A stretch of DNA of 64,000 nucleotides from Spironucleus salmonicida (taxonomy: Eukaryota), in NCBI RefSeq assembly GCF_000497125.1, contig NC_090598.1:806001-870000 (forward strand). The letters run 5' to 3'. How positions within the stretch are numbered: the stretch's first letter is position 1; each line of letters opens with the position of its first letter. Made by a program: the position numbers and the translations under genes. The notes under the pieces were generated by a model. It was not told the origin of the DNA. It saw only the letters and a list, made by a program, of their open reading frames with translations, and searched no databases. Below are positions 14,098 through 64,000 of the stretch, piece by piece.

Positions 14098-15030
14098 TCA
14101 CTCGCAGAGAAGGATTTAGATCAAATCGTGCAGCTCGGTCCCCTCGTACTGGGCAAAATCTGCTAGAAATTCGTCGTCGTGCGCGAGGTAGGCCAGGTCC
14201 TGACTATCGCAGTGCTGCAGGACGCTGTACAGATTCCGCAGGTACTAGCCATCGAGAGCCAGGTAGGAGCGTCCGGAATTGCTGAGGAAGCATCCCAGGG
14301 CCTACGGGGCGTAACTGATGCAGTTCGGTAGGTATAGGTGGACGGTTTCCCGCACGATTCTACAGCTCTCAAAATTCATGCATATAGGCACAATGTCGTA
14401 GAAGATGCCGGCCTGCGCGAGCTTCACGACGGACCACACGAGGAAGTAGAACGGCGGGGAGTTGCTCAGGGCGTCGTAGCCCGACTGCGCGCCGTCGAAG
14501 AACTTCGAGCTAACGCCATCCAGGACCCGCTCGACCTGCACCAGGAGCGGTGTCGGGATCGTGAGCCGCTGGCTTGTGCAGTTGCGGATCAGGATGAACG
14601 TGAGGTACTGTGCCTCTGTGAGGTACTCCTCGGTGCGCAAAAATACCTCGAAGACGCCCGGCAGCGATGGCGCAGCGAAGAGGACCCCGCAGTCGTAGTC
14701 GGGGAGCAGGATCATGAGTGAGTCGAACACCATCCGCATGGGCTGCTGCAGAACGATGCTGAGCAGCAGCTCGTTGTAAAACAGCTTCGGGAGCTCGCTC
14801 TTGGAGAAGAACTGGAGGAGCTTGAACGCCCACGGGTAGTCGGCCAGCAGCAGGCTGGTGAGCTGCGCCTGCATGGCCGGGGAGTCGTTGATGATGATAG
14901 TGGCCTGGTCTGGGCTAAGGCTGCTGATCGCACCCACGAGCCCATCTAGGGTGTCAAAGTGCAGGGCGACGGGCTAGATCGGGAAGTGCTGCGCGAAGGT
15001 GTTCAGCTGATGCCTCCTGTAAACTTCCAT
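14098..15030 (-). CDS. Hypothetical helical protein (310 aa), full-length copy
   Basis: Code-6 frame MEVYRRHQLNTF...ILLCE. TATAAT plus CCACACTCC upstream, gAGTGA stop. Confidence 0.75.
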
Positions 15031-17665
15031 TTTGGAGTGTGGCGTATTATAATGTGCCTAAGCAAATATCATGCCAGCTAGGCCGGCTAATAGGGCAGTC
15101 CTTTGCCGTGCATCTTCTGCTCGCGGTAAATGCTCTCGGAGCTGAACCGGTGTTTTTTGCCGTAGTGCTGCCACGGGAAGCATGATGGGCCCGGCACGAA
15201 TCGGCTGAGCACAAAAAAAGCAAGCGTCACTTTCTGCCTCTGCCTCTGCCTCTCCTGGGTGGGATTTTGGTCACCTTGGCCACCTCTACCTTGTCGTTGA
15301 CTGCCACACCTTAGTGCTTAACGACTTTTCTGCTCACCCTTTTCTGCCACTTGGCTGGCATCGGTTTGGCCTCCTTCTTCACAAACACTTTTTCGATGAC
15401 TACAATGGGGGCCTGCTTGACGGCTAGCGCTTTGACGATGGAGCATTCCTGGACATCCGAAAAGTTAACCACGCCGCCAAGGCAGCCGCTTTTGTCTTCC
15501 ATAAATCTGGCGCAGTCCCCCTTGAAGCCAACGCCGTTCAGGAGCCCCACTAGGTAGTTGCCGGCTGATTGTGGCTGCGCCAGCGAAATATCTACGTAGT
15601 TCTTCGACTCTACAAGTTCTCTCCACTCTGTCTCGAAGTACTTCCCGGGATCCTTCTTCTCCCTCTTAACGAGCGAGTTGGACGGGAAATGACTGGATAT
15701 TATGCAGGATGCTGCCTAACACACCTGGGAGAACACACTTCCCTGAATCTTGCACATAGCGGGTGTGTTGGCACTCAGAACTTGAAAAAGCTCGCGAGTC
15801 TAATTAATCTGAAACCTAACCGTGGCATCGCAGTTTTGGGATATGCTCTGCACCAGCTTAAGATTACCCCTGATCAGGGCCTTGATGTTTTGCAACGCAT
15901 CCAGCGATGGCGTGGAAAATTAAATTTGGAATATGATCTCAAATATCTAGTAGAGCTGGTTTAGATGGGCCGACTGGTACGGTTTCGGAAGAACGAACGG
16001 CTGGTTCTCCAAGTATGCTCTGCTGACGTTCATAACAAAATCAATCTGCTCTCTGTCCTTTTCGGTCTCTTCGCCGTCAAAATTGAGAGAGGCCTTCTCA
16101 CAGCACTCGATAGCCTTTTGAAACTTCATGTTGCTAAAATAATACAGGGCCTTATTGTATTAGAACTCATAGTTTTTAAACTGGAGCGGGTTTGTGTTCT
16201 GCACTCCGCTTCTCGTGCAGCATGCCAGCTAGTTGACGCTCTGTTCATAGTTCTTGGTCGACTGCTGCGACTCCGAAGCCAGCTAGAAGTTTTTGAGGCG
16301 GTATGCGATCTACTATTTCAGGACGTCCGCCTTTGGGTGTGCTTCTGTAGACTTGAAGTACCAGTAGGCGTCCTTCTTGAGTGAATAGTCGCAGTATGCG
16401 CGCTCAAAGTCTAGCCCCTATTTCGGGGCGACCTCTAACGCCCGCTGAAGAGACTCTATGTCGTAGTTTTTGATATGGCATGCGCACACGAGTCTGCTCT
16501 TGATAGGTTCAACGAGGGACGCTGCACCGCTGATGACCTTACCGTACTCCTCGGCCTTGAAGAATTGGATGATTTGTTTGGAGATCATTTTATTGGAGTG
16601 GTGTGTAGATTAGCAAAGTATTATATGATTATTGCCTGATAAAGTATATGCTAGAGTCAGCTGCACGATTTCCATCTCGCGGCTTCGCTGCGATCTTTCG
16701 AAATCAGAAAATCACCTCAAACAGACAGTAACTACCCTATTGAATATACTTTATCTTTCTCTTGTCTCCAAGACGCTGTTGGTACTGCTTCCCATCAATT
16801 TACATCAGGCAAGTCTGCCCCTTCGCTATTGGCTTGGTCGGGGACAGCACCCTCACTTTAATGTCAAGGGCTAAGTTAAACAGAATAATGTCGGTGGACA
16901 TGAAGCTCACTTTCTGCAGGGTGATGTACCGTAAGATGACAAAGGAACTCTTGTTGGCAAGCACTGCTATCGCGTCGTACACGGTCTTATTATTCCATTC
17001 GGCTGTTACAACTTGTACGCTGATGTTCTTCTTGCAGGTTAGGAGTTGCTGCACCACAACCTCTTCTTGTGGGGTAATCGGAACCTTCTTGTCGCCAAGG
17101 ATATACAGTATGTGTGTTTTCCCTAAGTGGACCTTTTTCTGAGCCTAATAGCAGGCATACTTCGAATCCTTCACGATACTGAAAATCAGTTAGTTCTTAT
17201 TCATGCTCTGTATATTTCTGATAAGATACTTTTGTTTGAGTACCTTTTCACGTGCTGACAACCACGTTTGGCAAATCTCCAAAGATTTTTGCGGGGGGAT
17301 CTTGTTGTTGAAAATGCAGATCTTGCCTTTCTTAAACTAATCAGCGAAACATTTCTAAATATCTTCCGGGGTGTCGGCCCACATTTTATTCTTCACCATG
17401 TAGCTGAGGCGGTCAGTACTGCAAACTGGAGTTTTCACTACTGAATCGTTTCTATGGCCCAGTAGTTTGTTGCTCACGTTAAAATATCGCGGGAACTCCT
17501 GCTTTAGGCACCATGTGAAGTCCAGATTGTACCAAGAAAGTCCGATTTTTTGCATGTTCCAGGCGTGGTTTTCACCGTTGGAGGCCGGACCCGTCACGCA
17601 GATTGAAGCCTTGTTCAGCAGCTTGGAGAGGAGCTTGAACAGCTTCGCGAAGCCGGCGCAGACGG
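14379..17665 (-). repeat. Inverted duplication 1, native arm (3287 bp; partner 19414..22700)
   Basis: Position p pairs with 37079-p. Mismatches noticed only at 15411/21668 and 15874/21205. Confidence 0.97.
15227..16588 (-). CDS. SRP72: Signal recognition particle subunit SRP72-like TPR protein (453 aa), copy 1
   Basis: FERAYCDY, QIAYRL and YEFQYNKA TPR signatures. C-terminal PMPAKW...HQG resembles the PDPERW...QG RNA-binding segment, followed by a basic RGRGRGRK tail. Confidence 0.75.
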
Positions 17666-18191
17666 CCACCCCGTTAAATGGACCCAGCGGGCTGAACTGG
17701 CTGTGCTTCATATTCGTTTCAGCAATGTTGCCGTATCGTGAATGTTTCGTGATCCAAACTAAATATTTTTAAGCCAACGTGTTACGACTCGAAGTAGTAC
17801 TTTAAATTAACTTAGTTACATTATAAATAAGAGTATTTTATAATTAAATAGTATTAGTATCATAACTAAAATTAAGTTTCGTAATATATGGATTAGCTAT
17901 ATATGAACCAAAATCACACATATATAATTCTGGAATTTCATACGCGATAAACTTGCGAATAAGTTTATAATCGTCAATAGTAATTTTAAGAGATTCAGGT
18001 AACACTATTGATTATTATAACTAGATCATCGCATTAACTGAACGAGTAGCCAATACTTATTATGCTTTTTTAAATTTAACATAATAATAATCATTTGCAA
18101 ATCCATATAATTTGAGCTACTGTTTTGGTCTGGTTTAGTTATTTTTAGAGTCTGAAATTTATTTTACACCACCAACTGTTTTTCCTTTCAT
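16704..18191 (-). CDS. Transglutaminase-like cysteine protease (495 aa), full-length copy
   Basis: Cys-His-Asp triad motifs VCAGFAKLF, HAWN and WYNLDFTW. Continuous code-6 frame from MKGKTVGG. Confidence 0.88.
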
Positions 18192-18850
18192 TCCAGGGAG
18201 GATGCAATAACAATGTTATTATAGTGTTATTAATATATAATGATTGAGTACACAAAAATCTAATATTTTATATAGCATTAATATTTTATTAATAAATAGT
18301 TTAATCCCACAATATTTATATAATATATAGTCTAATATTATATTAATTATATCAATATATAATATTAGCATAACTAAATATTTTACATAATCAATAAATA
18401 TAAAAATATTATATGTAATGTTACAATACTCTAATTGATAACCTATTAATGCTCAATATTATACAAATGTAATATTTCACTTTTTAAGTATATTTAAATA
18501 ATTAATGATTAAAACTAATACGTATAATCTCTACTTTACAGTAACACTTACGAATAATAGTAAATATACTTTAACATTAATACTAATTTTTAGTAGCGAA
18601 ATAAATAAAGTCAGTATAATAATATTATGAATTACTTACAGTTTTATCAGCAGTGCAACATTATTTTTATTTTTTTGTATCAATATTCTTGATTTTAAAA
18701 ACAGATAGCAATAATAGGATTAGATTATAGCTTAAAATGATAGTTTAAACTTACTTAATCTATCTACAGTTCCGATATTTCTATATTTATGTTCACATAA
18801 AAATACATACTTGATACTCAGGTGTTAATGATATTTCATTTCTTCAGTCA

Positions 18851-19108
18851 TCATATTAAGCTTAATAGCTAACGCAGTACCATATTTAAATCACATTCTT
18901 CAAAATTATCTAATGATGGAGTCTTGCAAGGAGAAATACTTATATCAACTACATCTTATTTACGTAGTTTATACCATTTATTCTTAAGTTTTAGTACGGT
19001 TAGTCGCGGAAAAGCATTTTCCTATATCTTCCTCCAATCTTAACCATATATATGAACCTGAGATATAAGGCGTTCTTCCTCAACATAAGTCCATTAGTGT
19101 GCTGTCAT
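18851..19108 (-). CDS. Single-repeat Myb/SANT DNA-binding protein (85 aa)
   Basis: MTAHQWTYVEEERLISQVHIYGQDWRKIQENAFPRLTVLKLKNKWY shows Myb Trp spacing. Missed by the ORF track. Confidence 0.88.
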
Positions 19109-19355
19109 TTTTATATACCGTAGAATAAACGCAACGTTAGTTTTTGAATAAGATTTCAATATTTTAAAAAAAATATTGTTTTAGGAATTCTACCAGATAT
19201 GAAAAATTAATTATCTCATTTAATTATAATTACAATAGTATGTCAGTATTTAGAGAAAAAATATCGATACACTAACTTAAATACAATATGCGCACCTGTA
19301 ATAAATTTCCTAAATCACAAAAAAATAAGATTTAAAACTTATAGTAAAATCAATC

Positions 19356-20375
19356 ATGACCCATGCACAGGAAGATAATTATAATATTGTCAATAACAAA
19401 TTTAACTGCATGACCGTCTGCGCCGGCTTCGCGAAGCTGTTCAAGCTCCTCTCCAAGCTGCTGAACAAGGCTTCAATCTGCGTGACGGGTCCGGCCTCCA
19501 ACGGTGAAAACCACGCCTGGAACATGCAAAAAATCGGACTTTCTTGGTACAATCTGGACTTCACATGGTGCCTAAAGCAGGAGTTCCCGCGATATTTTAA
19601 CGTGAGCAACAAACTACTGGGCCATAGAAACGATTCAGTAGTGAAAACTCCAGTTTGCAGTACTGACCGCCTCAGCTACATGGTGAAGAATAAAATGTGG
19701 GCCGACACCCCGGAAGATATTTAGAAATGTTTCGCTGATTAGTTTAAGAAAGGCAAGATCTGCATTTTCAACAACAAGATCCCCCCGCAAAAATCTTTGG
19801 AGATTTGCCAAACGTGGTTGTCAGCACGTGAAAAGGTACTCAAACAAAAGTATCTTATCAGAAATATACAGAGCATGAATAAGAACTAACTGATTTTCAG
19901 TATCGTGAAGGATTCGAAGTATGCCTGCTATTAGGCTCAGAAAAAGGTCCACTTAGGGAAAACACACATACTGTATATCCTTGGCGACAAGAAGGTTCCG
20001 ATTACCCCACAAGAAGAGGTTGTGGTGCAGCAACTCCTAACCTGCAAGAAGAACATCAGCGTACAAGTTGTAACAGCCGAATGGAATAATAAGACCGTGT
20101 ACGACGCGATAGCAGTGCTTGCCAACAAGAGTTCCTTTGTCATCTTACGGTACATCACCCTGCAGAAAGTGAGCTTCATGTCCACCGACATTATTCTGTT
20201 TAACTTAGCCCTTGACATTAAAGTGAGGGTGCTGTCCCCGACCAAGCCAATAGCGAAGGGGCAGACTTGCCTGATGTAAATTGATGGGAAGCAGTACCAA
20301 CAGCGTCTTGGAGACAAGAGAAAGATAAAGTATATTCAATAGGGTAGTTACTGTCTGTTTGAGGTGATTTTCTGA
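19356..20375 (+). CDS. 5'-truncated chimeric copy of the transglutaminase-like gene (339 aa) or a pseudogene
   Basis: Identical to the 16704..17665 part from 19414 onward. N-terminus MTHAQEDNYNIVNNKFNCMT comes from unrelated AT-rich flank. Catalytic triad retained. Confidence 0.6.
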
Positions 20376-22700
20376 TTTCGAAAGATCGCAGCGAAGCCGC
20401 GAGATGGAAATCGTGCAGCTGACTCTAGCATATACTTTATCAGGCAATAATCATATAATACTTTGCTAATCTACACACCACTCCAATAAAATGATCTCCA
20501 AACAAATCATCCAATTCTTCAAGGCCGAGGAGTACGGTAAGGTCATCAGCGGTGCAGCGTCCCTCGTTGAACCTATCAAGAGCAGACTCGTGTGCGCATG
20601 CCATATCAAAAACTACGACATAGAGTCTCTTCAGCGGGCGTTAGAGGTCGCCCCGAAATAGGGGCTAGACTTTGAGCGCGCATACTGCGACTATTCACTC
20701 AAGAAGGACGCCTACTGGTACTTCAAGTCTACAGAAGCACACCCAAAGGCGGACGTCCTGAAATAGTAGATCGCATACCGCCTCAAAAACTTCTAGCTGG
20801 CTTCGGAGTCGCAGCAGTCGACCAAGAACTATGAACAGAGCGTCAACTAGCTGGCATGCTGCACGAGAAGCGGAGTGCAGAACACAAACCCGCTCCAGTT
20901 TAAAAACTATGAGTTCTAATACAATAAGGCCCTGTATTATTTTAGCAACATGAAGTTTCAAAAGGCTATCGAGTGCTGTGAGAAGGCCTCTCTCAATTTT
21001 GACGGCGAAGAGACCGAAAAGGACAGAGAGCAGATTGATTTTGTTATGAACGTCAGCAGAGCATACTTGGAGAACCAGCCGTTCGTTCTTCCGAAACCGT
21101 ACCAGTCGGCCCATCTAAACCAGCTCTACTAGATATTTGAGATCATATTCCAAATTTAATTTTCCACGCCATCGCTGGATGCGTTGCAAAACATCAAGGC
21201 CCTGCTCAGGGGTAATCTTAAGCTGGTGCAGAGCATATCCCAAAACTGCGATGCCACGGTTAGGTTTCAGATTAATTAGACTCGCGAGCTTTTTCAAGTT
21301 CTGAGTGCCAACACACCCGCTATGTGCAAGATTCAGGGAAGTGTGTTCTCCCAGGTGTGTTAGGCAGCATCCTGCATAATATCCAGTCATTTCCCGTCCA
21401 ACTCGCTCGTTAAGAGGGAGAAGAAGGATCCCGGGAAGTACTTCGAGACAGAGTGGAGAGAACTTGTAGAGTCGAAGAACTACGTAGATATTTCGCTGGC
21501 GCAGCCACAATCAGCCGGCAACTACCTAGTGGGGCTCCTGAACGGCGTTGGCTTCAAGGGGGACTGCGCCAGATTTATGGAAGACAAAAGCGGCTGCCTT
21601 GGCGGCGTGGTTAACTTTTCGGATGTCCAGGAATGCTCCATCGTCAAAGCGCTAGCCGTCAAGCAGGTCCCCATTGTAGTCATCGAAAAAGTGTTTGTGA
21701 AGAAGGAGGCCAAACCGATGCCAGCCAAGTGGCAGAAAAGGGTGAGCAGAAAAGTCGTTAAGCACTAAGGTGTGGCAGTCAACGACAAGGTAGAGGTGGC
21801 CAAGGTGACCAAAATCCCACCCAGGAGAGGCAGAGGCAGAGGCAGAAAGTGACGCTTGCTTTTTTTGTGCTCAGCCGATTCGTGCCGGGCCCATCATGCT
21901 TCCCGTGGCAGCACTACGGCAAAAAACACCGGTTCAGCTCCGAGAGCATTTACCGCGAGCAGAAGATGCACGGCAAAGGACTGCCCTATTAGCCGGCCTA
22001 GCTGGCATGATATTTGCTTAGGCACATTATAATACGCCACACTCCAAAATGGAAGTTTACAGGAGGCATCAGCTGAACACCTTCGCGCAGCACTTCCCGA
22101 TCTAGCCCGTCGCCCTGCACTTTGACACCCTAGATGGGCTCGTGGGTGCGATCAGCAGCCTTAGCCCAGACCAGGCCACTATCATCATCAACGACTCCCC
22201 GGCCATGCAGGCGCAGCTCACCAGCCTGCTGCTGGCCGACTACCCGTGGGCGTTCAAGCTCCTCCAGTTCTTCTCCAAGAGCGAGCTCCCGAAGCTGTTT
22301 TACAACGAGCTGCTGCTCAGCATCGTTCTGCAGCAGCCCATGCGGATGGTGTTCGACTCACTCATGATCCTGCTCCCCGACTACGACTGCGGGGTCCTCT
22401 TCGCTGCGCCATCGCTGCCGGGCGTCTTCGAGGTATTTTTGCGCACCGAGGAGTACCTCACAGAGGCACAGTACCTCACGTTCATCCTGATCCGCAACTG
22501 CACAAGCCAGCGGCTCACGATCCCGACACCGCTCCTGGTGCAGGTCGAGCGGGTCCTGGATGGCGTTAGCTCGAAGTTCTTCGACGGCGCGCAGTCGGGC
22601 TACGACGCCCTGAGCAACTCCCCGCCGTTCTACTTCCTCGTGTGGTCCGTCGTGAAGCTCGCGCAGGCCGGCATCTTCTACGACATTGTGCCTATATGCA
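19414..22700 (+). repeat. Inverted duplication 1, ectopic arm
   Basis: Reverse complement of 14379..17665. The genes at both ends are truncated. Confidence 0.97.
20491..21852 (+). CDS. SRP72: SRP72-like protein, copy 2 (453 aa)
   Basis: Same as copy 1 except I/L and A/V substitutions. CACCACTCC upstream, aAGTGA stop. Confidence 0.75.
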
Positions 22701-22900
22701 AATTCTTCTACAAATTAAATAGCTCTGCGTACTATTTAATTTTATATTTTTACCTTATAGTCTTTACGGTTTTTATTAGTCGATAGGACACTTTTTAATT
22801 CTATAAATCAATCAAATAGGTATTATAAATATTGTTATTTAAACTTGTAATACTAAGTAACATTTTAAAGTTATCTTACTAAGCGTTAAAAATTTTATGA
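22049..22900 (+). pseudogene. 3'-truncated chimeric copy of the 14098..15030 gene
   Basis: Identical up to 22700 (...DIVPIC), then reads about 66 codons of AT-rich flank to TGA. Confidence 0.65.
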
Positions 22901-24038: not shown

Positions 24039-24190
24039 CTGAGTAAATAGAAATAATTTAGGGCATATCAATTAGGTCATTAACTAATATTTTATTATCA
24101 AAATCAATTGATATTAATTTATTATATAATTATTAACAATTTACCTTTTATCATATTAACTTATTATATGGTATTAATTAAATTCTATAA

Positions 24191-25607: not shown

Positions 25608-25626
25608 GTTGTAGAATTTAGTCAGC

Positions 25627-27333: not shown

Positions 27334-27778
27334 TATCAAATAAACTACAATTTAGATAGTATTCTATATTATATAAGATTTATTCAGATTCACAATATGA
27401 TTTTTTAATAATTAATTTATATAAATAAATAATGTAAATTCTATAATTTACTACTGAAATATTAGTAATTTTATAACAATATTTACAGATTCTCATTTGT
27501 TACTAAATTTTCTTATCTGCTTGAGAATAAATTAATATATAAGACATAAGATATTATGAATTTCTAGGTTAATTTATTCTCTCAGTTAAAAATATAAATA
27601 AAACAATCTTGAACTAAATAAATATTAACATATATAAAACCTATATAAAATAATACTAAAAATAATAGTCTTGTAGATATTAAAGTACGTATAATGAGTA
27701 TTCATAAGACTATTTTATAACACTATTAATTATTGATATAAATTACAAAAAAATACCGACTACTTTTTACAGGAGACG

Positions 27779-28765
27779 ATGTCGGCGTTCTCGGCGGTGC
27801 TGCTGGGCCGCGTGGCGGCGGAGGAGGCTATCGAGATCATCAAGTACGACAAGTCCGCGCAGTTCAAGAAGAACAAGAACAAGGAGGACATCACCTCCGT
27901 GACCGCCGAGTCCGGGCAGCCGCTGATGCTCCCCACCTCGGACCGCCTCATCTGGCCCGGGGACAACCTCGACCCGATGACGGTGCTCGCGATCGGCATC
28001 TCCGCCATCTCCCTGCGCGAGAACCCGGAGTTCCTGCTCCGGTACGCGCAGCGGATTCTCCAGTTCTGCGACATCCACGCCCGCCGCGCGGTGCCCTTCA
28101 TGATCGCGCTCGGCTTCGCGTCGAACCCGGACAAGCTGGCGATCTCGGACCTGGAGAAGCTGGCCCTCAACAGCGACAAGACGCTCTCGGCGAACGCGAT
28201 TCTGGCGCTGGGCATCGTGGGCTGCGGCAGCCAGAACTCCCAGATCTGCGGCGTGCTGCGCCACGCGGTGGAGAGCAAGTTCTACAGCGACGGCGTGATC
28301 GAGCACGTCCTGCTGAACGCCCAGATCGCGTTCGGCCTGCTCTACTGCGGGAGGGGCAGCCTGTGCATCAACCTGAAGAACCCCAAGTCCCTCGCGGCGC
28401 TGCTGAGCCTGCTCAACTTCGCCGCCCCCGCCGCGTCGGTGATGGCGAGGCCCAAGTGCACGATGGTGTACTACCTGCTGGCGTGCTGCCTCGAGCCGAA
28501 GGTCGTGACCTGCGTGGACGCGGACATGAACAGCGTCAAGGTCAGCGCGCGCGTGGGGAGGGAGATCGAGGACTACCAGAGCGAGAAGGGCGCCAGGCTG
28601 GTGGGCTTCTCCCTCCACGAGACGCCGGTCGTGAAGAGCGTCGGCCAGAGCCTGCGGGTCGTCAGCGAGGGCAAGGTCGGGCTGAACGAGGACTGCGGCG
28701 TGGTCGTGGTCGTGGACGGGGAGCAGCAGGGGCAGGACGAGGACGAGGATAACCTCTACAGGTGA
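27779..28765 (+). pseudogene. RPN1: 5'-truncated copy of proteasome Rpn1 (C-terminal 328 aa, in frame from an internal Met)
   Basis: Identical to the 3' third of 34599..37511. Upstream sequence is unrelated AT-rich DNA. Confidence 0.8.
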
Positions 28766-28975
28766 GCTGTTGCGCTGTCACTGCCGTCCGGCCCCCCCTG
28801 GTTTACGCTCCACACCCCATTCCGCTCCACGCCCTTCCGCACTTACTTCGGGGCGCGGCCGCGGGATGTCGGAACTCGCCTGCGGCTGCCGGTGGCCCGC
28901 CGCCGTGCGCTGGTGCCGCCCCTTACTTTTTAGTTACCAAGTATCTTTTTTCGAACCACTCCCAGTATACAAAGA

Positions 28976-29308
28976 ATGGAGTCCCGGCGCATCTCCGGCC
29001 ACCTGTTCATGGGCGTGCAGCAGAAGCTCCCGGAGCCCGACATGGCGGTCGTCAACGCCACCTTCTACACCGCCGCCGACGTGCTGGCCCGCCGCGACCA
29101 GCACTGGGTCAGCTACCGTGGCATGGTGTACGACCTCAGCCTCTACGTCGCCTACCACCCCGGCGGCGACTGCTTCGACTGGGGCTACGACATCACCGCC
29201 GCGACCACCGCCGCCCACGCCTTCGTCCACGCCGAGATGTTCATCAGACGCCTCGCCGTCGGCGTGCTCCAGGGCCCGCCGCAGACCCCGCCGAAGCGGC
29301 CCTTCTGA
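28976..29308 (+). CDS. Soluble cytochrome b5-like heme-binding protein (110 aa), copy A
   Basis: WVSYRGMVYDLSLYVAYHPGG...DIT....AH carries both axial His. CCACTCCC upstream. Confidence 0.88.
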   Translation: MESRRISGHLFMGVQQKLPEPDMAVVNATFYTAADVLARRDQHWVSYRGMVYDLSLYVAYHPGGDCFDWGYDITAATTAAHAFVHAEMFIRRLAVGVLQGPPQTPPKRPF

Positions 29309-29975: not shown

Positions 29976-31325
<1,350 letters not shown>

Positions 31326-54113: not shown

Positions 54114-54825
54114 ATAGTGAATTATACGTAGTTTTAAGAGTTTTAAGATTTTATTTTTATTATAGATGTTCAAAACATGATTATGTACACATACCATTGA
54201 TATTATTTGAAGTTATATAATTGGTAGAAAATGTTTTAAAAATTAATTATATAAAGGTGAATAAGGAATATTGTAAAATAAAGGATTGATTTTTACGAAA
54301 ATATAATAATCATAATATAATAATCAGTTTTTACAATTTTAAAGTTATATTAGTGAATAAGACATAATAATATTTCTGTAAAAATGATAAAATGTTCCAA
54401 ATCCCCGCACCGGGCCAGAAAGCCCTACGAACGCGCAGACGCCCCCACATATCAGAAGATGTAAACGCAGAGGATCCAGCTCAGCCAGTATGAGTGGGAG
54501 TGGTGAGGAGTGACTAGTATTCTAGCCGTTCGGCCGGTATGGGCAGCCTACTGGATAGGCACACTATGCCTGTCACATTTCTGAAGTGGGTCTAGCCTAG
54601 GAGTTGCGCTGGCACCTGATGCGCCAGGCCTGCTGGAGCGAGGCTGAGGCTGAGGGGGGTGGGATAGAATACGCAGGGTACATTCTATGCGTGGCACCGC
54701 CCGCAGCCCGCACAGGCCGGTGCAGGGCGTTCGCGGTGCAGGGGATGGGCCGTGCTGTGATGCGCCATGGCCGGTGGAGCGATACGCAATATCCGCCTCT
54801 TATACATTCCCTGCGAAGTGCAAGA

Positions 54826-55404
54826 ATGCGGCTGTTCGACGACCTGCCCTTCGGCGTCCAGCGGCAGTTCGCCCAGCTGGAGGCGCTCCGGGTCCTGGAC
54901 CTGGGCAACCTCATGAAGTACTTCGTGGCCAAGCTCTTCTACTACGCCGGGGCCAAGACCGCGGACCAGCTGCTCGCGTTCTACACCGGCCTGCTCGACC
55001 TGGGCGGCCAGTACCACTTCGCGGTGCTGTGCGATATCTTCGGCACGGAGCGGCTGGTCATGGCCGTGAGCCAGCACAACTTCCCCTTCTTCCGCGCGCT
55101 CTCGGGCGTGTTCTACGGCCCTGCGTCCTGCTTCGTGGGCGTGGACGACTTCGAGGACCAGCTGATCACGATCTGCCGCATCGTGGAGACCCTGGCAGCC
55201 AAGGCGCCGTCGGTGGCGGAGGGCATCCGGCAGGTGTACCGGGCCCGCGAGACGGAGGTGCTCCGGCAGAAGGCCTTCAAGGGATACCGCATCGGCGGCG
55301 ACGCCAGCCCGCACATCGAGGGCCGGCAGTTCCGCGGGCGCTGGGACATCGGCTACCTGGTGGACATGCAGCGCCCCAGCCGGAGCGCGGGCGGCGGGAA
55401 GTGA
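54826..55404 (+). CDS. Hypothetical protein (192 aa)
   Basis: Strong GC3 bias in this frame (MRLFDDLPFG...), aAGTGA stop. Confidence 0.7.
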   Translation: MRLFDDLPFGVQRQFAQLEALRVLDLGNLMKYFVAKLFYYAGAKTADQLLAFYTGLLDLGGQYHFAVLCDIFGTERLVMAVSQHNFPFFRALSGVFYGPASCFVGVDDFEDQLITICRIVETLAAKAPSVAEGIRQVYRARETEVLRQKAFKGYRIGGDASPHIEGRQFRGRWDIGYLVDMQRPSRSAGGGK

Positions 55405-55519
55405 GGCCGCCCAAGAACTCGGCGCAGTTTCGGCTCGATAAAGAGAAGCGGGGTCTCCGCACTCCCGAGTACAATAGCACCGCCCGCCGCACCAACTCTC
55501 TTTATCCCCCTCCACACAA

Positions 55520-55834
55520 ATGGGAGGAGTGAGCTCGACCGAGGCCGTGCTGATCTCCGTCATGGTACTGCTCATGGTCTTCATCGCCAGCGGGGCCATC
55601 ACCTTCTGCTGTTGCTGCTGCAAGGTCCAGCGCGACCAGAGGCGGACCTACCACGACTACATGGACCAGGTGCAGCAGGTCCTGGGCATGGTCAAGACGC
55701 AGGCCTGCCGCCAGGAGACCGTCGAGGTGGCCGGCCAGGGGGTCCAGCCAGCCTGGCAGGTGATGGGCGCCGGCGGGGACCAGCTGCCCCGGATCCCGGT
55801 GGTCAGGGACGTCGACAGCCCCCAGCTGCTGTGA
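55520..55834 (+). CDS. Small single-pass membrane protein with a CCCCC juxtamembrane cluster (104 aa)
   Basis: C-rich leader CCCCCTCCACACAA, MGGVSS, a hydrophobic helix, then FCCCCCK. Confidence 0.7.
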   Translation: MGGVSSTEAVLISVMVLLMVFIASGAITFCCCCCKVQRDQRRTYHDYMDQVQQVLGMVKTQACRQETVEVAGQGVQPAWQVMGAGGDQLPRIPVVRDVDSPQLL

Positions 55835-56162
55835 GCGCCCGGGCGCGGCGAGTGAGCATTGTTGTATTCCATTCCGGGCGGGCCCGCTCCGCCTTCCGCG
55901 GAGGACGGCGCCTACATGGTACTCCGCTCCGAAGGCCGCCATAGAAAAGCCCAGTGTGCGCCGCAGCGAAACGCAAGTAAAAACAGTTTCTGTCCTGGCG
56001 GGGCCGCGGTATTACGGGGGATGCGGCGTCTGTTCTTAAGTGTGCCGAAACCGGTTTCTGGAGCGGCCTATTACGGTCCGATACCCAGGGCGGGGCTCCC
56101 CTCCCAGACGCGCGCGTATTATATACCCGCAGCGGCCCGCGGCCCAGTAACTGACGCTCCAA

Positions 56163-56345
56163 ATGAGCACGCTGAGCGCCCTGCACCGCCCCCTGATCCA
56201 CCCCGCGGCCGTGATCCGCTTCGACCTGCCCGGCGCGCGGCCCGTGCCCTACGTCCAGGCGCGGCGCTTCTTCGACGCGTTCTCGCGCGCGAAGGTGGAG
56301 CTGCTGGAGCTGGGGCGCCGCCTGGAGGCCCTCGAGCGGGAGTGA
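56163..56345 (+). CDS. Small hypothetical protein (60 aa)
   Basis: TATTATA plus CTCCAA leader, GC3 bias, gAGTGA stop. Confidence 0.55.
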   Translation: MSTLSALHRPLIHPAAVIRFDLPGARPVPYVQARRFFDAFSRAKVELLELGRRLEALERE

Positions 56346-56447
56346 GGGTGTACAAAGTATACAGCGCTTTACGTTTTGTATACTTTGGGTAAACGGGATT
56401 GGGCCGCGATCCCGATTCGCGGGTCATAAATCTGCGCCCACTCCACA

Positions 56448-56771
56448 ATGTCATTCCAGACCATCATCCACGCAGCCGTCGAGAACAACAAGCACGTGCC
56501 CCACATCACCGTCACCGGCAGCAAGGTCCACGTGCAGTGCGGCGAGAAGGAGCTCCACCCCACCTCCGACAAGCACTACATCGGCGAGATCAAGATCTAC
56601 GGCCTCAAGGGCGCCGTCCTCATCGAGCTCGGCTCTGCCCACTTCTACCCCGGCCTCACCGAGCCCGTCGCCGAGTTCTCCGTGTTCGAGATCGCCAGCT
56701 ACTCCAAAATCGTGGCCACCTCCTACTGCAACCTCCACGGCATCTTCCACGCCGAGAAGGAGCTCAAGTGA
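56448..56771 (+). CDS. sor: Superoxide reductase (1Fe-SOR/neelaredoxin type, 107 aa)
   Basis: Iron-ligand motifs KHVP, HP, HYI and CNLHG. CCCACTCCACA leader, aAGTGA stop. Confidence 0.95.
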   Translation: MSFQTIIHAAVENNKHVPHITVTGSKVHVQCGEKELHPTSDKHYIGEIKIYGLKGAVLIELGSAHFYPGLTEPVAEFSVFEIASYSKIVATSYCNLHGIFHAEKELK

Positions 56772-56835
56772 TATCTTGTCATTTTCTTTGTTTCCCTCTA
56801 GGGCCGCATGCGCGTCGGTGGTCCACTCACCCCTG

Positions 56836-57153
<318 letters not shown>

Positions 57154-57784
57154 GCATTACATATGAATGTATTGTGTATATTTATATTCTATTTTACGCT
57201 ATTCGAATCGATGAATTTTAATTTGTTTTTATTTTTAATCTCATTTCTTGACTACTTGATTTGTATCATTGGTGTATGGGTATTGGTTCTATTTATATGA
57301 TTTGTGACATGCTTTTTAATTGGTCCTTGTGGATTTCTGGTTTGCTATTCGGGTCACCCGGTTGTTTCTTGGGTATCTGTGCGACTAATGATCTCATTTC
57401 TTATGATTTGATGGGTATGGTTCTATTCAAAAATTCGGCGCTTGGGCGACCCAGCCGGCCCGCAGTGTCTAAAGAGATCGCTGGATTTTGGGCTGGATAT
57501 CCATCATATATGATAAATCGATCAAGATTCATGTATTATAAATAATAATGCCTGCGATTTTTCGGAAAATTGCATTTGTAAACTATTGATCTGGGCCCCT
57601 CGTGTCCTGAATCCATAAATTTGAGCGATGCCCTTTATGGGTTACATGCGTAAAATGATCCTTACTTCTAATGATGATTCCATGCGTCATCGTCTTGCAT
57701 CGATAGATGATTCAATATCTATGCATTATGCATAACAATACTGTGTCTTTGTCATTTCTGAAATGGGTTTTACCGATCTTGCTT

Positions 57785-57825
57785 TTACTTACTTACTGAC
57801 TGACTGACTTACTTACTTACTTACT
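57785..57825. repeat. Short compound (TTAC)n/(TGAC)n repeat
   Basis: ttacttacttactgactgactgacttacttacttacttact. Confidence 0.9.
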
Positions 57826-57868
57826 AATTAGTTGATTCACTCACCACCAGCTCGCATCCCATCCTACC

Positions 57869-58453
57869 ATGCCCATCCCCCGGCCAGCGGCAGCCCCGAG
57901 CAGCGAGTCGGAGGCGGAGGAGGACGCAGAGGCCGCGCCGCAAAGCGAGCCGGAGCCCGTGCTCACTGCGCGCGAGGCGCTGGAGCGCTTCTACGCGCGG
58001 CTGGGGAGGTACGACGAGGTCCTGCACGGGCTGGACTACCTGCGCACGCACGACTTCGTGCAGACGCTCCCGCCGCCGGCCCGGCTGGCCTTTGCGTTCC
58101 AGGGGGCCGTGCCGCGCACCCACGTGTCCCAGACCGAGGAGTTCCGCATCCTCGCCGTGGAGGCCGTTGCGCTCCGGTGCTGGCTGGACGGGCGGGCCGC
58201 GCAGCTTGTGGTGGACCGCGAGAAGGTGGCCCTGCCGCACGCGGCGTTCGGCTTCGAGCTCCCGGTCACCATGCAGCGGCTGGGGCGGCGCCAGGTGCGC
58301 GTCGGGACCCTGCGGGCGCGGGCGGTGGTGGAGATGCAGGAGGAGGACGCCGACCACCTCGCAAAGGTGCTGCAGGTGTACCAAGACCAGTTCGCGGCGG
58401 CCAGGGCGCTGGACCTCGGGCAGTGCGACCTGTACAGCGTGCTGGGCGTGTGA
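57869..58453 (+). CDS. Hypothetical protein (194 aa), acidic N-terminus
   Basis: Strong GC3 bias, C-rich leader, TGA stop followed by AGTGA. Confidence 0.7.
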   Translation: MPIPRPAAAPSSESEAEEDAEAAPQSEPEPVLTAREALERFYARLGRYDEVLHGLDYLRTHDFVQTLPPPARLAFAFQGAVPRTHVSQTEEFRILAVEAVALRCWLDGRAAQLVVDREKVALPHAAFGFELPVTMQRLGRRQVRVGTLRARAVVEMQEEDADHLAKVLQVYQDQFAAARALDLGQCDLYSVLGV

Positions 58454-58483
58454 GGCCGCCCGGCGGCGTAGTGATGCATGCAG

Positions 58484-58693
58484 TCACTCGCAGCAGGCCC
58501 GCAGCAGCTTGAGCAGCTCGCCCTCCTGGGCCGGCGCGGCGTCCTTGCGCATGCGGTAGTGCTTGTTCTTGATCACGGCGACCGAGAGCCGCGGGAAGCT
58601 CTCGCACCGGATGCGCTCCCACTGGCTCCCGTGGCGCTGCACGACCTGGTGGAGGCGCTCCTCCTGCTCGTAGGTCCATCGGTAGGCTGGCAT
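58484..58693 (-). CDS. Single-repeat Myb/SANT protein (69 aa)
   Basis: MPAYRWTYEQEERLHQVVQRHGSQWERIRCESFPRLSVAVIKNKHY. CCACTCCACA leader, gAGTGA stop. Paralog of 18851..19108. Confidence 0.88.
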   Translation of the reverse strand: MPAYRWTYEQEERLHQVVQRHGSQWERIRCESFPRLSVAVIKNKHYRMRKDAAPAQEGELLKLLRACCE

Positions 58694-60056
58694 TGTGGAG
58701 TGGCGAGTACATTGGCGACAGGGACGCGGGCGGGTCCGACGCCGCGTGCCGTAGAAAGCAGGCGTGGGCCCGAGAATACCCCGCGATAGGGCAGTTTTTT
58801 CTGCGAGTACGAGGAGCGGTGAGGAAAGGAAAGTGTCACTCGTGGTGGGCATGGCCGTGGTCGTGCCCATGATCGTGCCCGCCGGTGACCACCTCGATCA
58901 CGTTGCTCACGCTGACGAGGCCGAAGCCCAGCAGCGTCCACAGCGCCCCGCCGGCGACCTCGCGCGCGGTGCCGGTGATCTCGTGGCCGAGGATCTCGAC
59001 CAGCACGATCGCCAGGAAGGTGCCCGCCGCGAAGCTCATGAAGCAGTCCTTGGTCACGTTGAAGGCCACGCCCGCCTCGCTCACGTGCGCGAGCCGCATG
59101 ACCGCGAAGGTCACCAGCTGGGCCACCGGCGTCGCGAAGGCGATGGGCAGGGCGAAGGCGAGGTTCTGGCGCCGGCTGAGCCCCTTGCGCATGCCCGCGA
59201 TCACCTGGCACGACACGTCGCACCACTTGTGCATCAGGATGGCGAGCGCCAGGAACGCGCCCTCGTGCAGGTCGGTCTGGAAGCCGAGGATCACGCCCTC
59301 GGACACGTCGTGGATCATGAGGCTGAGCATGAGCGCCTTGATGGTGGAGTCGGGCCTCACTGCGGGTGGCGCGGTGGCCTGGCAGGTCTCGGTGCAGTTG
59401 TCCGCGTCGTGGTCGTGGCAGTGGTTGTTGCGGTCCACCACGCAGGAGGGGCCGCAGTGGCCGAAGGTCATGGACGCGTGGGCCTCGCAGTCCAGCGGCG
59501 CGCTGCCGGTGTCCGAGGCCGAGGCGTTGTCGGGGTGGCCGTGGTCATGGTCGTGCCCGTGGTTGTGGCCCACCTGGATCACCACCAGCATCGCGAGGAT
59601 GCCCAGGAAGAGCACCACCGAGCTCACCGGGAAGTCCCCGCAGGCGTGGTTCAGCGCGTCCCCGGACTCGGGGATGATGTGCAGCAGCGCCACGCCCGCC
59701 AGCATGCCGCCCGAGAGGCAGTTCATCCGGCCCGTCACCCGCGTGCTCTTCGCGAGCCGCTGCACCAGGTAGGGCAGCACGCCGCCCAGCAGGGCCACCA
59801 CGAGGATCAGCAGGGCCGAGAGCGGTTGGAAGATTTCGATCGCGAGGGCGCTTGACATTGGGGGAGTGGTGCGGCGGAAAGAAAGCCGAATTTTGGGGGA
59901 ACATCTCGCGTACCGTATAATATCCTAATTCCCCGCGCCGCTCCACGCCGCCCAGTATCATTCCCCACGCCGGCCGCACTCCCGCCCGGCCCCCGCCAGG
60001 AGGCGCTGCACCCGCCCGCACAGCCGCGCGTCACTGCACAGGTCGTGGGCCAGAGG
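58608..60056 (-). repeat. Inverted duplication 3, left arm (the partner runs off the window end, so the left limit is a minimum)
   Basis: Position p pairs with 122608-p. Mismatches at 59977/62631, 59894/62714 and 58644/63964. Confidence 0.97.
58836..59858 (-). CDS. ZIP (SLC39) zinc/iron transporter, copy 1 (340 aa)
   Basis: GGMLAGVALLHIIPES, His-rich loop, HDVSEG and AILMHK metal-site motifs, AAGTFL. Confidence 0.93.
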   Translation of the reverse strand: MSSALAIEIFQPLSALLILVVALLGGVLPYLVQRLAKSTRVTGRMNCLSGGMLAGVALLHIIPESGDALNHACGDFPVSSVVLFLGILAMLVVIQVGHNHGHDHDHGHPDNASASDTGSAPLDCEAHASMTFGHCGPSCVVDRNNHCHDHDADNCTETCQATAPPAVRPDSTIKALMLSLMIHDVSEGVILGFQTDLHEGAFLALAILMHKWCDVSCQVIAGMRKGLSRRQNLAFALPIAFATPVAQLVTFAVMRLAHVSEAGVAFNVTKDCFMSFAAGTFLAIVLVEILGHEITGTAREVAGGALWTLLGFGLVSVSNVIEVVTGGHDHGHDHGHAHHE

Positions 60057-60313: not shown

Positions 60314-62650
60314 ATGACGATCTAGTTTACTATAAATAACTACACAACATAGCTAGGCGAAAATTTATATATTATAGGATCTCTGCCAGAATTAGGTGAA
60401 AACAATATTTATAAAGCAATTCCACTAAAGTTTATAGACAACAAATGGTAAATTTAAGTTCATTTTAAATCTATCAAATCTGGGACATATAAGTATTTTT
60501 CAAACCTAAACCAGGACACGTACCTCCGAAAGCTGCCAATAATGCCCCAAAATACGACGGAAATACTTGAAATTTCGGATGATTGGTCTCCGCAAAGAAC
60601 CGACCCCTGGTACTCGGAAATTTATGATATAATACAACCGAAAACGCAGTTTAAAACTTCAATTCTTGATAATCTAAACCCAGCCGTTGAGTTCGAGGAG
60701 CAGCGGGTAATCATCCGCTGCTTCGCGGCGTACGAGGCTGGGACGCTCGAAATTTCGGGGTCCGGGAACCAGCTACTGAACTGGTCCACACGCTTTAAAA
60801 TGAACCAAATTGCACCCCGCACGTTCGAGCTGGAGCTGCTGTTCGAGCCACAGGAGGAGCCCTTTGCATTCAAATTCCTCAGGGACGGCACATACGAGGC
60901 CGGTCCCAACCGCTGCTTCTCCTACCGTCCAGGCGTGCAAGTACTAAACTGCTTCTACCGCTATGACTGCATTCCGCTGCTCCGCGTGGCCGGAATTTCG
61001 CTTGTGCGGACGCAATTTCCGCTGCAGAAAGTCGAAAAAATGGTCGATTTCGCACACAGCGCCGGTTTCAAAACCATAGCATTCCCATGCATCCATGCGG
61101 TCGACAGCAGCTTCGCGCTCGATCACGCAGTATTCGGCCTCGATGATGCCAGTGTACGCGCCGAATTCGACCGAATTCCGCTCTTCGAGCGCGTGGAAAG
61201 CACAATATAGCGCGTTCAGCGCAGCACATCGCTGTGCTACTGGCTTCCCGGCTACGCTGTCTACCGCGCCGTCTAGGGCGATCCTGACCTTCTCGGCAGC
61301 TTCGCGACGGACCGCGAGCGCGAAGGCTTCATAAGCCGCGTTTTCTTCACCGAAAAGCGCTTCCAGAGCGCGTATTTCGTAGCGTTTGAGCAGCTGCTGT
61401 TGCATGAGCTCCTGGAAACGGCCGTGCGCTACGCGCACGCGAACGGCATATTCCTGACCGGCGAGTTCTCGTTCACGATACCACGCAAGTCGCACAATTT
61501 GTGGCAGTTCGGACGCTTCTATACGCAGGGCTCGCAGGGTGCCGTGGACCTCGAGGCGCGCACGTCCTGCAATTTGAACTGTCCGGTGCTGAACTGGGGG
61601 AGCCTCAAGGAGGCCAATTACGTGTTTCTGCAGCACCAGATCTCGCAGTTGGAGCAGTACTTCAAGCACGTCGTACTAGCGACCTCCGAGCAGTTCTTCA
61701 GGACGTGGGAAATACCGGCAGAGTGCTTCCGCACAAACGGGCGCTTGGGGCGCTTTTCACCTGCGAATCCGATCCAAATTTCGAGCATTCCGGTGCACAA
61801 CCCACAGCGGCTCGTGCTGCCGAATCTGGCGATTTCGCACCTCGTGCCAGCCGTGATCAGCCGTGAGCAGGGGCAGCGGCTGGTATCGCTGGATATTCTG
61901 ACTGTTAAAGGCGATTCCTACGAGTTCCAAATGAGCGAAAAAGCGGCATGTAAGCTCCTGCACGATCAGCCTGTTTTGCAGGAATCCGTGCAAAAGATCA
62001 ACGGAAATCGCTGCATGGCGCCTGATCTCGCATACCCGCTGCTGAACTGCCACCCACTCATCCAGAACTAGCTGCAGTGCAGCGAAACGGCGTTTTTCAA
62101 AAGCCTCAGCCAGGCCGAGCAGGACGTCTTGCGTGGCATTTCGGGAAACTACTTCTGGAATCAGCACTGCTGCTGGATTGCGCGCGGCCACGAGCGATTA
62201 CAGTGGCTCCAGGGCATCGGCCAGGTCTTGTTTTCGTGTCGTGGTAGGAGCGAGCACTAATTTGAGGCTGAGTTCCTGAAATAAGGGATTTTGCTCAGCA
62301 ATCAGTTTCAGTTTCAGGGCAGCTCTGCCAGGGGGTGGATGAGCCTTACTGAAAGCAACATCTCATTTCGTGACAGTTTACTCGAGTAAAAATTTCGTGT
62401 TGATGAGTATATTAAGTCTATTAGTGGTGAAAGAAACTCGTAGAATTCTACAAAAGACAAAATAAAGATACTAATGACAGAAATGCTTAACTCAGATTCT
62501 ATGATCACTTTGGTACACTTGGATGATATTATCTCGCTGGCCGACGGCACGCCTCTGGCCCACGACCTGTGCAGTGACGCGCGGCTGTGCGGGCGGGTGC
62601 AGCGCCTCCTGGCGGGGGCCGGGCGGGAGTACGGCCGGCGTGGGGAATGA
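60314..62650 (+). CDS. 4-alpha-glucanotransferase DPE2-like (2x CBM20 plus degenerate GH77; 778 aa)
   Basis: N-terminal CBM20 (TQLGENLYIIGSLPELG), second CBM20 (GSGNQLLNW...FKF...E.GPNR), AVRYAHANGIFLTG, PVLNW, FFRTWEIP. One continuous code-6 frame. Confidence 0.82.
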
Positions 62651-62749
62651 TACTGGGCGGCGTGGAGCGGCGCGGGGAATTAGGATATTATACGGTACGC
62701 GAGATGTTCCCCCGAAATTCGGCTTTCTTTCCGCCGCACCACTCCCCCA

Positions 62750-63772
62750 ATGTCAAGCGCCCTCGCGATCGAAATCTTCCAACCGCTCTCGGCCCTGCTG
62801 ATCCTCGTGGTGGCCCTGCTGGGCGGCGTGCTGCCCTACCTGGTGCAGCGGCTCGCGAAGAGCACGCGGGTGACGGGCCGGATGAACTGCCTCTCGGGCG
62901 GCATGCTGGCGGGCGTGGCGCTGCTGCACATCATCCCCGAGTCCGGGGACGCGCTGAACCACGCCTGCGGGGACTTCCCGGTGAGCTCGGTGGTGCTCTT
63001 CCTGGGCATCCTCGCGATGCTGGTGGTGATCCAGGTGGGCCACAACCACGGGCACGACCATGACCACGGCCACCCCGACAACGCCTCGGCCTCGGACACC
63101 GGCAGCGCGCCGCTGGACTGCGAGGCCCACGCGTCCATGACCTTCGGCCACTGCGGCCCCTCCTGCGTGGTGGACCGCAACAACCACTGCCACGACCACG
63201 ACGCGGACAACTGCACCGAGACCTGCCAGGCCACCGCGCCACCCGCAGTGAGGCCCGACTCCACCATCAAGGCGCTCATGCTCAGCCTCATGATCCACGA
63301 CGTGTCCGAGGGCGTGATCCTCGGCTTCCAGACCGACCTGCACGAGGGCGCGTTCCTGGCGCTCGCCATCCTGATGCACAAGTGGTGCGACGTGTCGTGC
63401 CAGGTGATCGCGGGCATGCGCAAGGGGCTCAGCCGGCGCCAGAACCTCGCCTTCGCCCTGCCCATCGCCTTCGCGACGCCGGTGGCCCAGCTGGTGACCT
63501 TCGCGGTCATGCGGCTCGCGCACGTGAGCGAGGCGGGCGTGGCCTTCAACGTGACCAAGGACTGCTTCATGAGCTTCGCGGCGGGCACCTTCCTGGCGAT
63601 CGTGCTGGTCGAGATCCTCGGCCACGAGATCACCGGCACCGCGCGCGAGGTCGCCGGCGGGGCGCTGTGGACGCTGCTGGGCTTCGGCCTCGTCAGCGTG
63701 AGCAACGTGATCGAGGTGGTCACCGGCGGGCACGATCATGGGCACGACCACGGCCATGCCCACCACGAGTGA
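62750..63772 (+). CDS. ZIP zinc/iron transporter, copy 2
   Basis: Protein identical to copy 1. CACCACTCCCCCA leader, gAGTGA stop. Confidence 0.93.
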   Translation: MSSALAIEIFQPLSALLILVVALLGGVLPYLVQRLAKSTRVTGRMNCLSGGMLAGVALLHIIPESGDALNHACGDFPVSSVVLFLGILAMLVVIQVGHNHGHDHDHGHPDNASASDTGSAPLDCEAHASMTFGHCGPSCVVDRNNHCHDHDADNCTETCQATAPPAVRPDSTIKALMLSLMIHDVSEGVILGFQTDLHEGAFLALAILMHKWCDVSCQVIAGMRKGLSRRQNLAFALPIAFATPVAQLVTFAVMRLAHVSEAGVAFNVTKDCFMSFAAGTFLAIVLVEILGHEITGTAREVAGGALWTLLGFGLVSVSNVIEVVTGGHDHGHDHGHAHHE

Positions 63773-63914
63773 CACTTTCCTTTCCTCACCGCTCCTCGTA
63801 CTCGCAGAAAAAACTGCCCTATCGCGGGGTATTCTCGGGCCCACGCCTGCTTTCTACGGCACGCGGCGTCGGACCCGCCCGCGTCCCTGTCGCCAATGTA
63901 CTCGCCACTCCACA

Positions 63915-64000
63915 ATGCCAGCCTACCGATGGACCTACGAGCAGGAGGAGCGCCTCCACCAGGCCGTGCAGCGCCACGGGAGCCAGTGGGAGCGCATCCG
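63915..64000 (+). CDS. Myb/SANT protein, copy of 58484..58693 (partial, window end)
   Basis: MPAYRWTYEQEERLHQAVQRHGSQWERI, with one V>A difference. Confidence 0.85.
   Translation, partial: MPAYRWTYEQEERLHQAVQRHGSQWERI

Follow-up and report, generated by a model that had tools for sequence, protein, structure and literature searches.

The stretch of DNA analyzed here (hereafter the window) comprises 64,000 bases of Spironucleus salmonicida, positions 806001-870000 of contig C3 (G000:C3) in forward coordinates, and carries gene-sized segments that are present as near-identical inverted pairs. TAA and TAG must be read as glutamine for its long frames to open, which leaves TGA as the only stop, and family matches run through these codons; the only non-self match of its proteasome subunit Rpn1 was the Rpn1 of Giardia. 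Judged from sequence, this code and the Rpn1 match mark a hexamitid diplomonad. The pairs were identified by self-BLAST of the window, and their arms were then compared base by base. This gave exactly three long inverted pairs (E = 0, far above chance) with 2, 0, and 3 mismatches, respectively, which confirmed the positions and the near-identity claimed by an earlier reading of the DNA letters (the sequence-only reading). The arms, the spacer of pair 1, and a microsatellite are located as follows (no strand is assigned to them).

14379..17665: left arm of pair 1 (3,287 bp), crossed at both ends by intact genes
17666..19413: pair 1 spacer, GC 0.25; 5' part of a transglutaminase-like gene and a Myb gene
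19414..22700: right arm of pair 1 in inverted orientation, with 2 mismatches; AT-rich DNA follows at both ends
27768..29424: pair 2 left arm, 1,657 bp, GC 0.66
33940..35596: right arm of pair 2, inverted relative to the left arm and free of mismatches
54371..60056: left arm of pair 3; holds genes for desulfoferrodoxin, Myb, and ZIP, a truncated gene of 194 codons, the final 33 codons of DPE2, and a GATT microsatellite
56836..57149: GATT microsatellite within the pair 3 arm, with a longer version in the other arm; the arms measure 5,686 and 5,976 bases
62552..64000: right arm of pair 3, which continues past the window as far as G000:C3:874527 and pairs over the first 2.2 kb with C3:876898-879111 as well

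The mismatches of pair 1 lie at 15411 and 15874, and its spacer measures 1,748 bases in the base-by-base comparison. At its inner end, 14 further bases follow with 4 mismatches, giving an alignment score that was reached by 2 of 100 shuffles; these are the exception to the absence of decayed homology past the arm edges, which was noted at 4 of the 5 ends tested. Pair 2 has no mismatch over 1,657 bases and a spacer of 4,515 bases. Inside the window, pair 3 occupies 58608-60056 and 62552-64000 with 3 mismatches and a spacer of approximately 2,495 bases. This pair is real as the sequence-only reading had it, but the boundary at 58608 only mirrors the window edge because the pair was cut at 64000; with the neighboring DNA included, it extends over approximately 5.7 kb (54371-60059 versus the window-equivalent 62549-68527). 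Its inner 2.2 kb, the ZIP-Myb block, occurs a third time at G000:C3:876898-879111. The three pairs are hence not all independent, contrary to what had been supposed: pair 3 is nested with its third copy, and pair 1 has 509 bases in common with an older paralog upstream. Inverted arms of more than 99% identity around a unique spacer, as in palindromes homogenized by conversion, are thus present. The GATT microsatellite differs by approximately 290 bases between the pair 3 arms, which are otherwise more than 99% identical; this suggests that length changes escape or outrun homogenization, or that the assembly errs there. Two further inverted arms (window 3704-6128 and 8951-12217) have their partners upstream of the window.

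Gene identities were assigned by Pfam with the curated cut-off applied. Matches above it were obtained for Rpn1, cytochrome b5, ZIP, Myb (two genes), glutamate dehydrogenase (GDH), a DPE2-like protein (GH77 + CBM20), and desulfoferrodoxin, so that most of the gene names proposed earlier were retained; SRP72 (SRP_TPR_like), also among them, matched only below the cut-off, as did a transglutaminase-like gene (Transglut_core). The genes in and across the arms are listed below, where GC4 is the G/C count at fourfold sites, compared inside versus outside the duplicated part of a gene.

14098..15183, minus strand: gene over the outer edge of pair 1, without a family name, start uncertain; GC4 89/105 inside and 30/38 outside, step not significant
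15227..16675, minus strand: SRP72-like TPR protein, 482 aa, complete in both arms; second copy at 20404-21852, plus strand
16704..18191, minus strand: transglutaminase-like gene, 495 aa; GC4 83/133 in the duplicated part and 9/50 outside
18851..19102, minus strand: Myb-domain gene in the pair 1 spacer (Pfam)
19356..20375, plus strand: truncated transglutaminase-like copy, 5' end missing; an in-frame ATG precedes the arm edge by 58 bases
21896..22900, plus strand: copy of the 14098..15183 gene, in which the frame reads through into AT-rich DNA in place of the 3' part
27779..28765, plus strand: C-terminal 328 codons of Rpn1, of which the first is an internal ATG lying 11 bases into the pair 2 arm
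28976..29308, plus strand: cytochrome b5-like gene, complete in both pair 2 arms; second copy at 34056-34388, minus strand
29976..31325, plus strand: GDH in the pair 2 spacer; direct 98% copy at 40970-42319, flanks unrelated
34599..37511, minus strand: 26S proteasome subunit Rpn1, 970 aa, intact; crosses the pair 2 outer edge at 35596
56448..56771, plus strand: desulfoferrodoxin (superoxide reductase)-like gene inside the pair 3 arm (Pfam)
57869..58453, plus strand: C-terminal 194 codons of a 467-aa gene, ATG exactly at the junction; whole copy at G000:C3:876076-877479
58484..58690, minus strand: Myb-domain gene inside the pair 3 arm; three copies
58836..59858, minus strand: ZIP metal transporter of 340 aa with GC4 192/195; present three times, the second copy at 62750-63772, plus strand, and the third beyond the window
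60314..62650, plus strand: DPE2-like 4-alpha-glucanotransferase (CBM20 + GH77), 778 aa; lies in the spacer and reaches into the pair 3 right arm at its 3' end

Intergenic DNA is included in the arms, in agreement with the earlier proposal of copying at the DNA level. It had also been proposed that each pair has one native arm with its ends inside intact genes. Such ends were found at both ends of pair 1, the outer end of pair 2, and the inner end of pair 3; the proposal did not hold at the inner end of pair 2, which lies 116 bases past the cytochrome b5 stop, nor at the outer flanks of pair 3, which are both AT-rich (GC 0.17 and 0.16). The truncated copies at 27779, 19356, and 57869 all start with an in-frame ATG at or near the junction and may be translated.

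The most informative feature of the locus is a step in GC content at the arm edges, which was absent from the sequence-only reading. In Rpn1, 169 of 171 fourfold sites carry G or C inside the pair 2 arm versus 46 of 244 outside it (Fisher p = 8e-70; odds ratio 364), and the proportion switches from 19% to 99% within a few codons of 35596. The TAA/TAG glutamine codons of this gene lie outside the arm without exception (40/40). Since the protein is collinear with Giardia Rpn1 through the arm edge, Rpn1 is not a chimera, and the only other matches to it in the genome are the second pair 2 arm and an unplaced contig (C25, described below). If the arm part began like the remainder of the gene, approximately 137 of the 171 fourfold sites were altered in both arms, which differ at none of them; joint changes of this number in identical arms call for long homogenization after birth of the pair. 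Near-identity had been taken as a sign of active, recent copying, which is not supported in view of a rise from 19% to 99% GC4 at the edge while the arms remain identical. The non-coding DNA is affected as well, with a GC content of 0.52-0.66 in five stretches inside the arms versus 0.16-0.22 in five stretches outside, so that codon selection is not the cause. Nine edge-crossing open reading frames (ORFs) were tested, hand-picked as likely genes (8 from 42 edge-crossing candidates, and DPE2); most of the 42 resemble false frames, and 4 of the 13 scanned with Pfam had a match. GC4 was significantly higher in the duplicated part in 6 of the 9. For DPE2 the counts were 25/27 inside the arm and 210/315 outside, and a second sharp step is located at the third-copy edge in the transglutaminase-like gene. 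Many arms reach only 60-65% GC4.

Exchange between related copies was examined on the transglutaminase-like gene, which has a full-length inverted paralog at G000:C3:800949-802436, 21 kb upstream of 16704-18191. The two are 97-100% identical in DNA over codons ~150-300 and 41-63% identical elsewhere; the paralog has a GC4 of 0.60 throughout, and only its catalytic middle is near-identical to 16704-18191 (codons ~150-311 of the latter). This mosaic identity shows a sharp conversion tract between old paralogs. Among the interior mismatches of the arms, 52 of 57 are GC-versus-AT differences, in unpolarized form. An excess of mismatches at the edges (37/1,300 edge versus 57/~35,000 interior sites) was not used because it is inflated by BLAST extension, and a transition-only mutator was dropped because codon counts cannot decide on it without an outgroup.

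The abundance of such pairs was evaluated in 264 kb of C3 around the window and 40 kb of C1, and by genome-wide family searches. Matches of at least 1 kb in the 264 kb comprised 16 inverted versus 5 direct rows; two of the 16 represent one arm, and three of the 5 arise from third copies. This supported the earlier claim that copying is local, recurrent, mostly inverted, and often partial. Inverted arms make up 30.7% of the 264 kb, with a GC content of 0.572 versus 0.353 in unique DNA, and 62 of the 78 500-base bins with GC of at least 0.6 fall within arms; the self-comparison for frequency and orientation that had been suggested earlier thus revealed an excess of inverted pairs in this region. 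Among 91 Myb matches in the genome, 12 inverted and 2 direct equal-score groups were obtained on C3, C4, C5, and C6, where grouping required an equal score within 35 kb and 17 of the 91 rows were set aside (16 from a tandem array plus one unplaced duplicate). Matches without TAA/TAG were 27 of 29 in the grouped set versus 6 of 45 among single ones. The dropped array (G000:C5:692439-710458) consists of 16 Myb matches spaced 1,193 bases apart, with no TAA/TAG in the matched part. Among 128 kinase matches, two inverted pairs were seen by eye. Inverted pairs are hence a general but regionally uneven feature of this genome.

Several side observations concern genes of the window. The direct GDH pair (29970-31338 and 40964-42332) is 98% identical with homology limited to the coding region, and of its 25 differences, 11 are crowded into the final 35 bases; at 30591, the first copy has TAA (glutamine) and the second has glutamate. 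A cytochrome b5-like match of 37% identity is located at window 48000-48360 (G000:C3:854043-854318), in a GC island without a partner. A tRNA-Ser(TGA) gene lies at 51410-51493, and its relatives occur as equal-score opposite-strand pairs at C4:1072750-1075688, C6:547930-578026, and C9:265379-326147. GC at third codon positions (GC3) rises gradually along an amino-acid permease gene and a 26S ATPase gene towards partnerless islands.

The reading that we consider probable is that the arms are old partial inverted duplications homogenized by GC-biased gene conversion. We infer the age from the composition, and with it an ongoing exchange between arms and a bias in repair. Inverted arms would be generated by local, often partial segmental duplication, and their near-identity would be kept by ongoing non-allelic gene conversion. 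If arm mismatches are resolved to G or C, neutral sites would drift to 60-99% GC, and since the AT-biased background would stay at approximately 19-21%, a sharp step would form where homology ends. A crossover is expected to flip the spacer of an inverted pair and to delete a direct pair, which from the geometry could explain why inverted pairs outlast and outnumber direct ones. Partnerless islands may be relics of former arms. As for the birth of the pairs, template switching, circle reinsertion, and staggered-break inversion are all candidate mechanisms. Both gene-continuing ends of pair 1 are on its left arm, which fits a copy-and-insert or two-switch event (template switching in break repair). 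In pair 3, the right arm is intact for DPE2 and the third copy is intact at the other end for the 467-aa gene; one intact end on each is the layout of a later spacer flip or a staggered-break inversion. The left arm of pair 3 bears both broken junctions and was presumably copied later from the right arm. Flipping of the spacers is geometrically possible, as the sequence-only reading had noted, and would leave the Myb, GDH, and DPE2 genes intact, since the left arm of pair 3 holds the last 33 DPE2 codons.

A number of observations weigh against biased conversion of old arms. Two of the nine edge-crossing ORFs have no step and one has a reversed step, though the latter may be a false frame. The arms vary widely in GC (0.44-0.73), and GC-rich islands without a partner copy in the genome were found at ~13000-14378, 24500-26300, 47500-50500, and in the DPE2 spacer (60650-62550), with blurred edges and intermediate GC. 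The 40-kb sample of C1 contained no inverted arm and two direct pairs with GC of 0.55, so that arm density is regional; direct repeats are GC-rich as well (0.54-0.55), so that orientation is not the cause of GC richness. By eye, 7 of 13 kinase matches with at most one TAA/TAG lack an equal-score partner. The odd-one-out sites of six three-copy sets comprised 30 GC>AT and 21 AT>GC changes (p = 0.26), and the conversion events are unpolarized in a comparison confined to one genome. Furthermore, a two-copy model with a bias of primate size (0.7) leads to only 35% GC; 99% takes approximately 0.997 per contest, or seven rounds at 0.70.

The pairs could alternatively be products of assembly, in which fold-back reads or alleles were set side by side. 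Read-derived contigs bear on this for region 16300-36299, and hence for pairs 1 and 2 (four runs of one sample, possibly the source of this DNA). The pair 1 arm contigs were 1.4- to 3-fold deeper than the neighboring unique contigs in all four runs. The pair 2 arm was doubled in two runs (19.9 versus 10-12; 25.6 versus 12-15) and not doubled in the other two (175 versus 126-193; 9.6 versus 12-13), so that the check by read depth proposed in the sequence-only reading came out clearly for pair 1 and divided for pair 2; the undoubled depth, like the use of one sample, is in favor of an artifact. In 3 of the 4 runs, the pair 2 arm was assembled into a single contig whose length is exactly 1,657 letters. 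Unique contigs extend 30 letters into the arms and end there at the junctions 19414, 22700, 27768, 33940, and 35596, which is the pattern of a graph branching there, though one letter under the bridging rule of 31. A loose contig end at 22700 matches the outer flank of the pair 1 left arm in three runs, and a 5.1-kb contig connects the outer edges of pairs 1 and 2 in 3 of the 4. These contigs fit the presence of pairs 1 and 2 as two copies each. Redundant sequence does occur in the assembly: the unplaced contig C25 (G000:C25:1-17924) matches window 32232-46087 at 100% identity, and its depth is not doubled in the part examined. It carries 4,068 extra bases between the matched parts, where a tandem array lies, and is probably an alternative allele or an alternative assembly of this array; the orientation of pair 2 in it is the same as in the window. 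The array itself (38227-39530) is GC-rich in AT-rich surroundings, with 45 copies of a 29-base unit at 92% matches, and is open in six frames. Fold-back products would not have spacers of 1.7-4.5 kb and two different flanks, and a GC step inside a gene cannot arise from misassembly, which makes an artifact very unlikely. A mobile element or a retrocopy, for which six reverse transcriptase matches in the genome (C3:1.47-1.49 Mb and C34) might speak, is extremely unlikely as the origin. No reverse transcriptase match was found in the window (transposases were not searched for), the arms carry several housekeeping genes plus intergenic DNA, the copies are local, and neither a target-site duplication nor a terminal repeat was found at pair 1 or 2, where the longest shared words are 7 and 5 AT-rich bases out of register. 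The earlier statement that no element ends are visible thus stands for these two pairs.

Two further explanations accept the pairs as real. The arms may be young, having arisen by recent short-range copying in which GC-rich DNA is copied more often and breaks at pre-existing GC steps. The 0-3 mismatches, the truncated genes, the lack of decayed homology beyond four of five edges, and the existence of partnerless GC islands are all in accordance with this; so is the nested order in pair 3, which would represent repeated births, and C. elegans has many young partial inverted duplicates (PMC2728529). Such copying leaves the mid-gene step from 0.19 to 0.99 in a conserved, single Rpn1 unexplained and requires a break within a few codons of it, and the second step in the transglutaminase-like gene adds to this difficulty. 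The partnerless islands have the blurred edges and intermediate GC expected of relics, and conversion between old paralogs is visible in the region. We therefore regard recent copying as unlikely. Repeat-directed AT-to-GC change, in which fold-back or heteroduplex DNA is processed by a near-absolute GC-directing repair system or mutator, appears even less likely. It would account for the Rpn1 arm-flank odds ratio, which is beyond a 0.7 bias in the two-copy model, and for the near-saturation of ZIP. On the other hand, large populations or many copies per cell amplify an ordinary bias, for which seven rounds at 0.70 are enough; the repair families searched gave an ordinary small set (2 MutS, 1 UDG, and 1 HhH-GPD match); a mutator alone would not hold the arms identical; and many arms stay at 60-65% GC4.

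A wider scenario may be put forward tentatively. Mismatches in local repeats would be resolved to G/C in a near-absolute manner, either at approximately 0.99 per event or through an ordinary bias multiplied over the copies of a two-nucleus polyploid cell, and the birth and death of gene-sized inverted repeats would write the GC mosaic of the genome, in which arms are live patches and partnerless islands are fading relics. The mid-gene codon usage of essential genes would then be rewritten and reassigned TAA/TAG removed, and the truncated arms starting with ATG might yield shortened proteins.

Abrupt changes in GC and genes whose GC3s approaches 1 have been described in the AT-rich genome of S. 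salmonicida and called hard to explain (PMC1805757, PMC2874811). Duplicated DNA was reported to make up 19.2% of its genome with a GC of 44.7% versus 30.7%, orientation not being stated in the portions of that paper drawn on here (PMC9509377), and a duplicated GDH with distinct upstream sequences is known (PMC2874811). The word "invert" is absent from the main texts of PMC1805757, PMC2874811, PMC9509377, and PMC3916229; gene conversion is mentioned once in these four main texts, for surface-protein genes (PMC9509377), and the published GC mosaic is not tied there to repeat edges. No paper linking converted inverted repeats to Spironucleus GC patches was found in a search that left most subscription journals outside, and the Hexamita inflata paper (PMC11787283) has no mention of "invert", "palindrom", or gene conversion. 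The pairs described here probably represent an extreme form of a process known elsewhere, and they suggest an answer to the published puzzle that can be tested: if the GC patches are arms of converted repeats, the puzzle can be addressed by self-comparison and isolate data. With neutral GC jumping from 19% to 99% across one edge of a single conserved gene, Rpn1 offers an internal control of rare clarity for measuring biased conversion in a protist. For this genome, duplicates cannot be dated as young from their near-identity, and neither lateral transfer nor expression level can be deduced from GC or codon usage.

Among known systems, a likeness to inverted repeats of Blastocystis was dropped, as "inverted repeat" is absent from the main text of PMC3129679. 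Seven identical head-to-head and tail-to-tail VSP pairs occur in Giardia muris, likewise a diplomonad with identical inverted genes flanking a gene-bearing spacer; they belong to one surface-antigen family with no GC effect reported in the portions of the paper used here, whereas housekeeping genes and fragments are involved in the present pairs (PMC7641422). The staggered-break breakpoints of Drosophila also place an inverted duplication beside an inverted segment, which fits the pair 3 right arm and its third copy, but their copies average 88% identity and span at most 1.9 kb, in contrast to more than 99% here, and pair 1, with both intact ends on one arm, needs no inversion (PMC1885836). 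Young duplicates of C. elegans are similarly local, inverted, and truncated with zero synonymous divergence; they are read there as young, whereas composition argues for age here, and the low divergence of yeast duplicates is often due to conversion (PMC2728529). The closest resemblance is to the palindromes of primate X and Y chromosomes, which have near-identical, gene-bearing inverted arms around a unique spacer and a higher GC in arms than in flanks; those of the X, for which GC-biased conversion between arms is established, have arms of approximately 46% GC versus 41% and a conversion bias of approximately 0.7 (PMC8981503). Spacers of intermediate GC are explained there as former arm, a likeness to the spacers of the present pairs. 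Unlike them, the arms described here are 1.2-5.7 kb instead of a median of 37 kb, exceed their surroundings by up to 80 points at fourfold sites instead of approximately 4-5 points of GC, occupy 31% of a gene-dense 264 kb, and cut housekeeping genes (PMC8981503).

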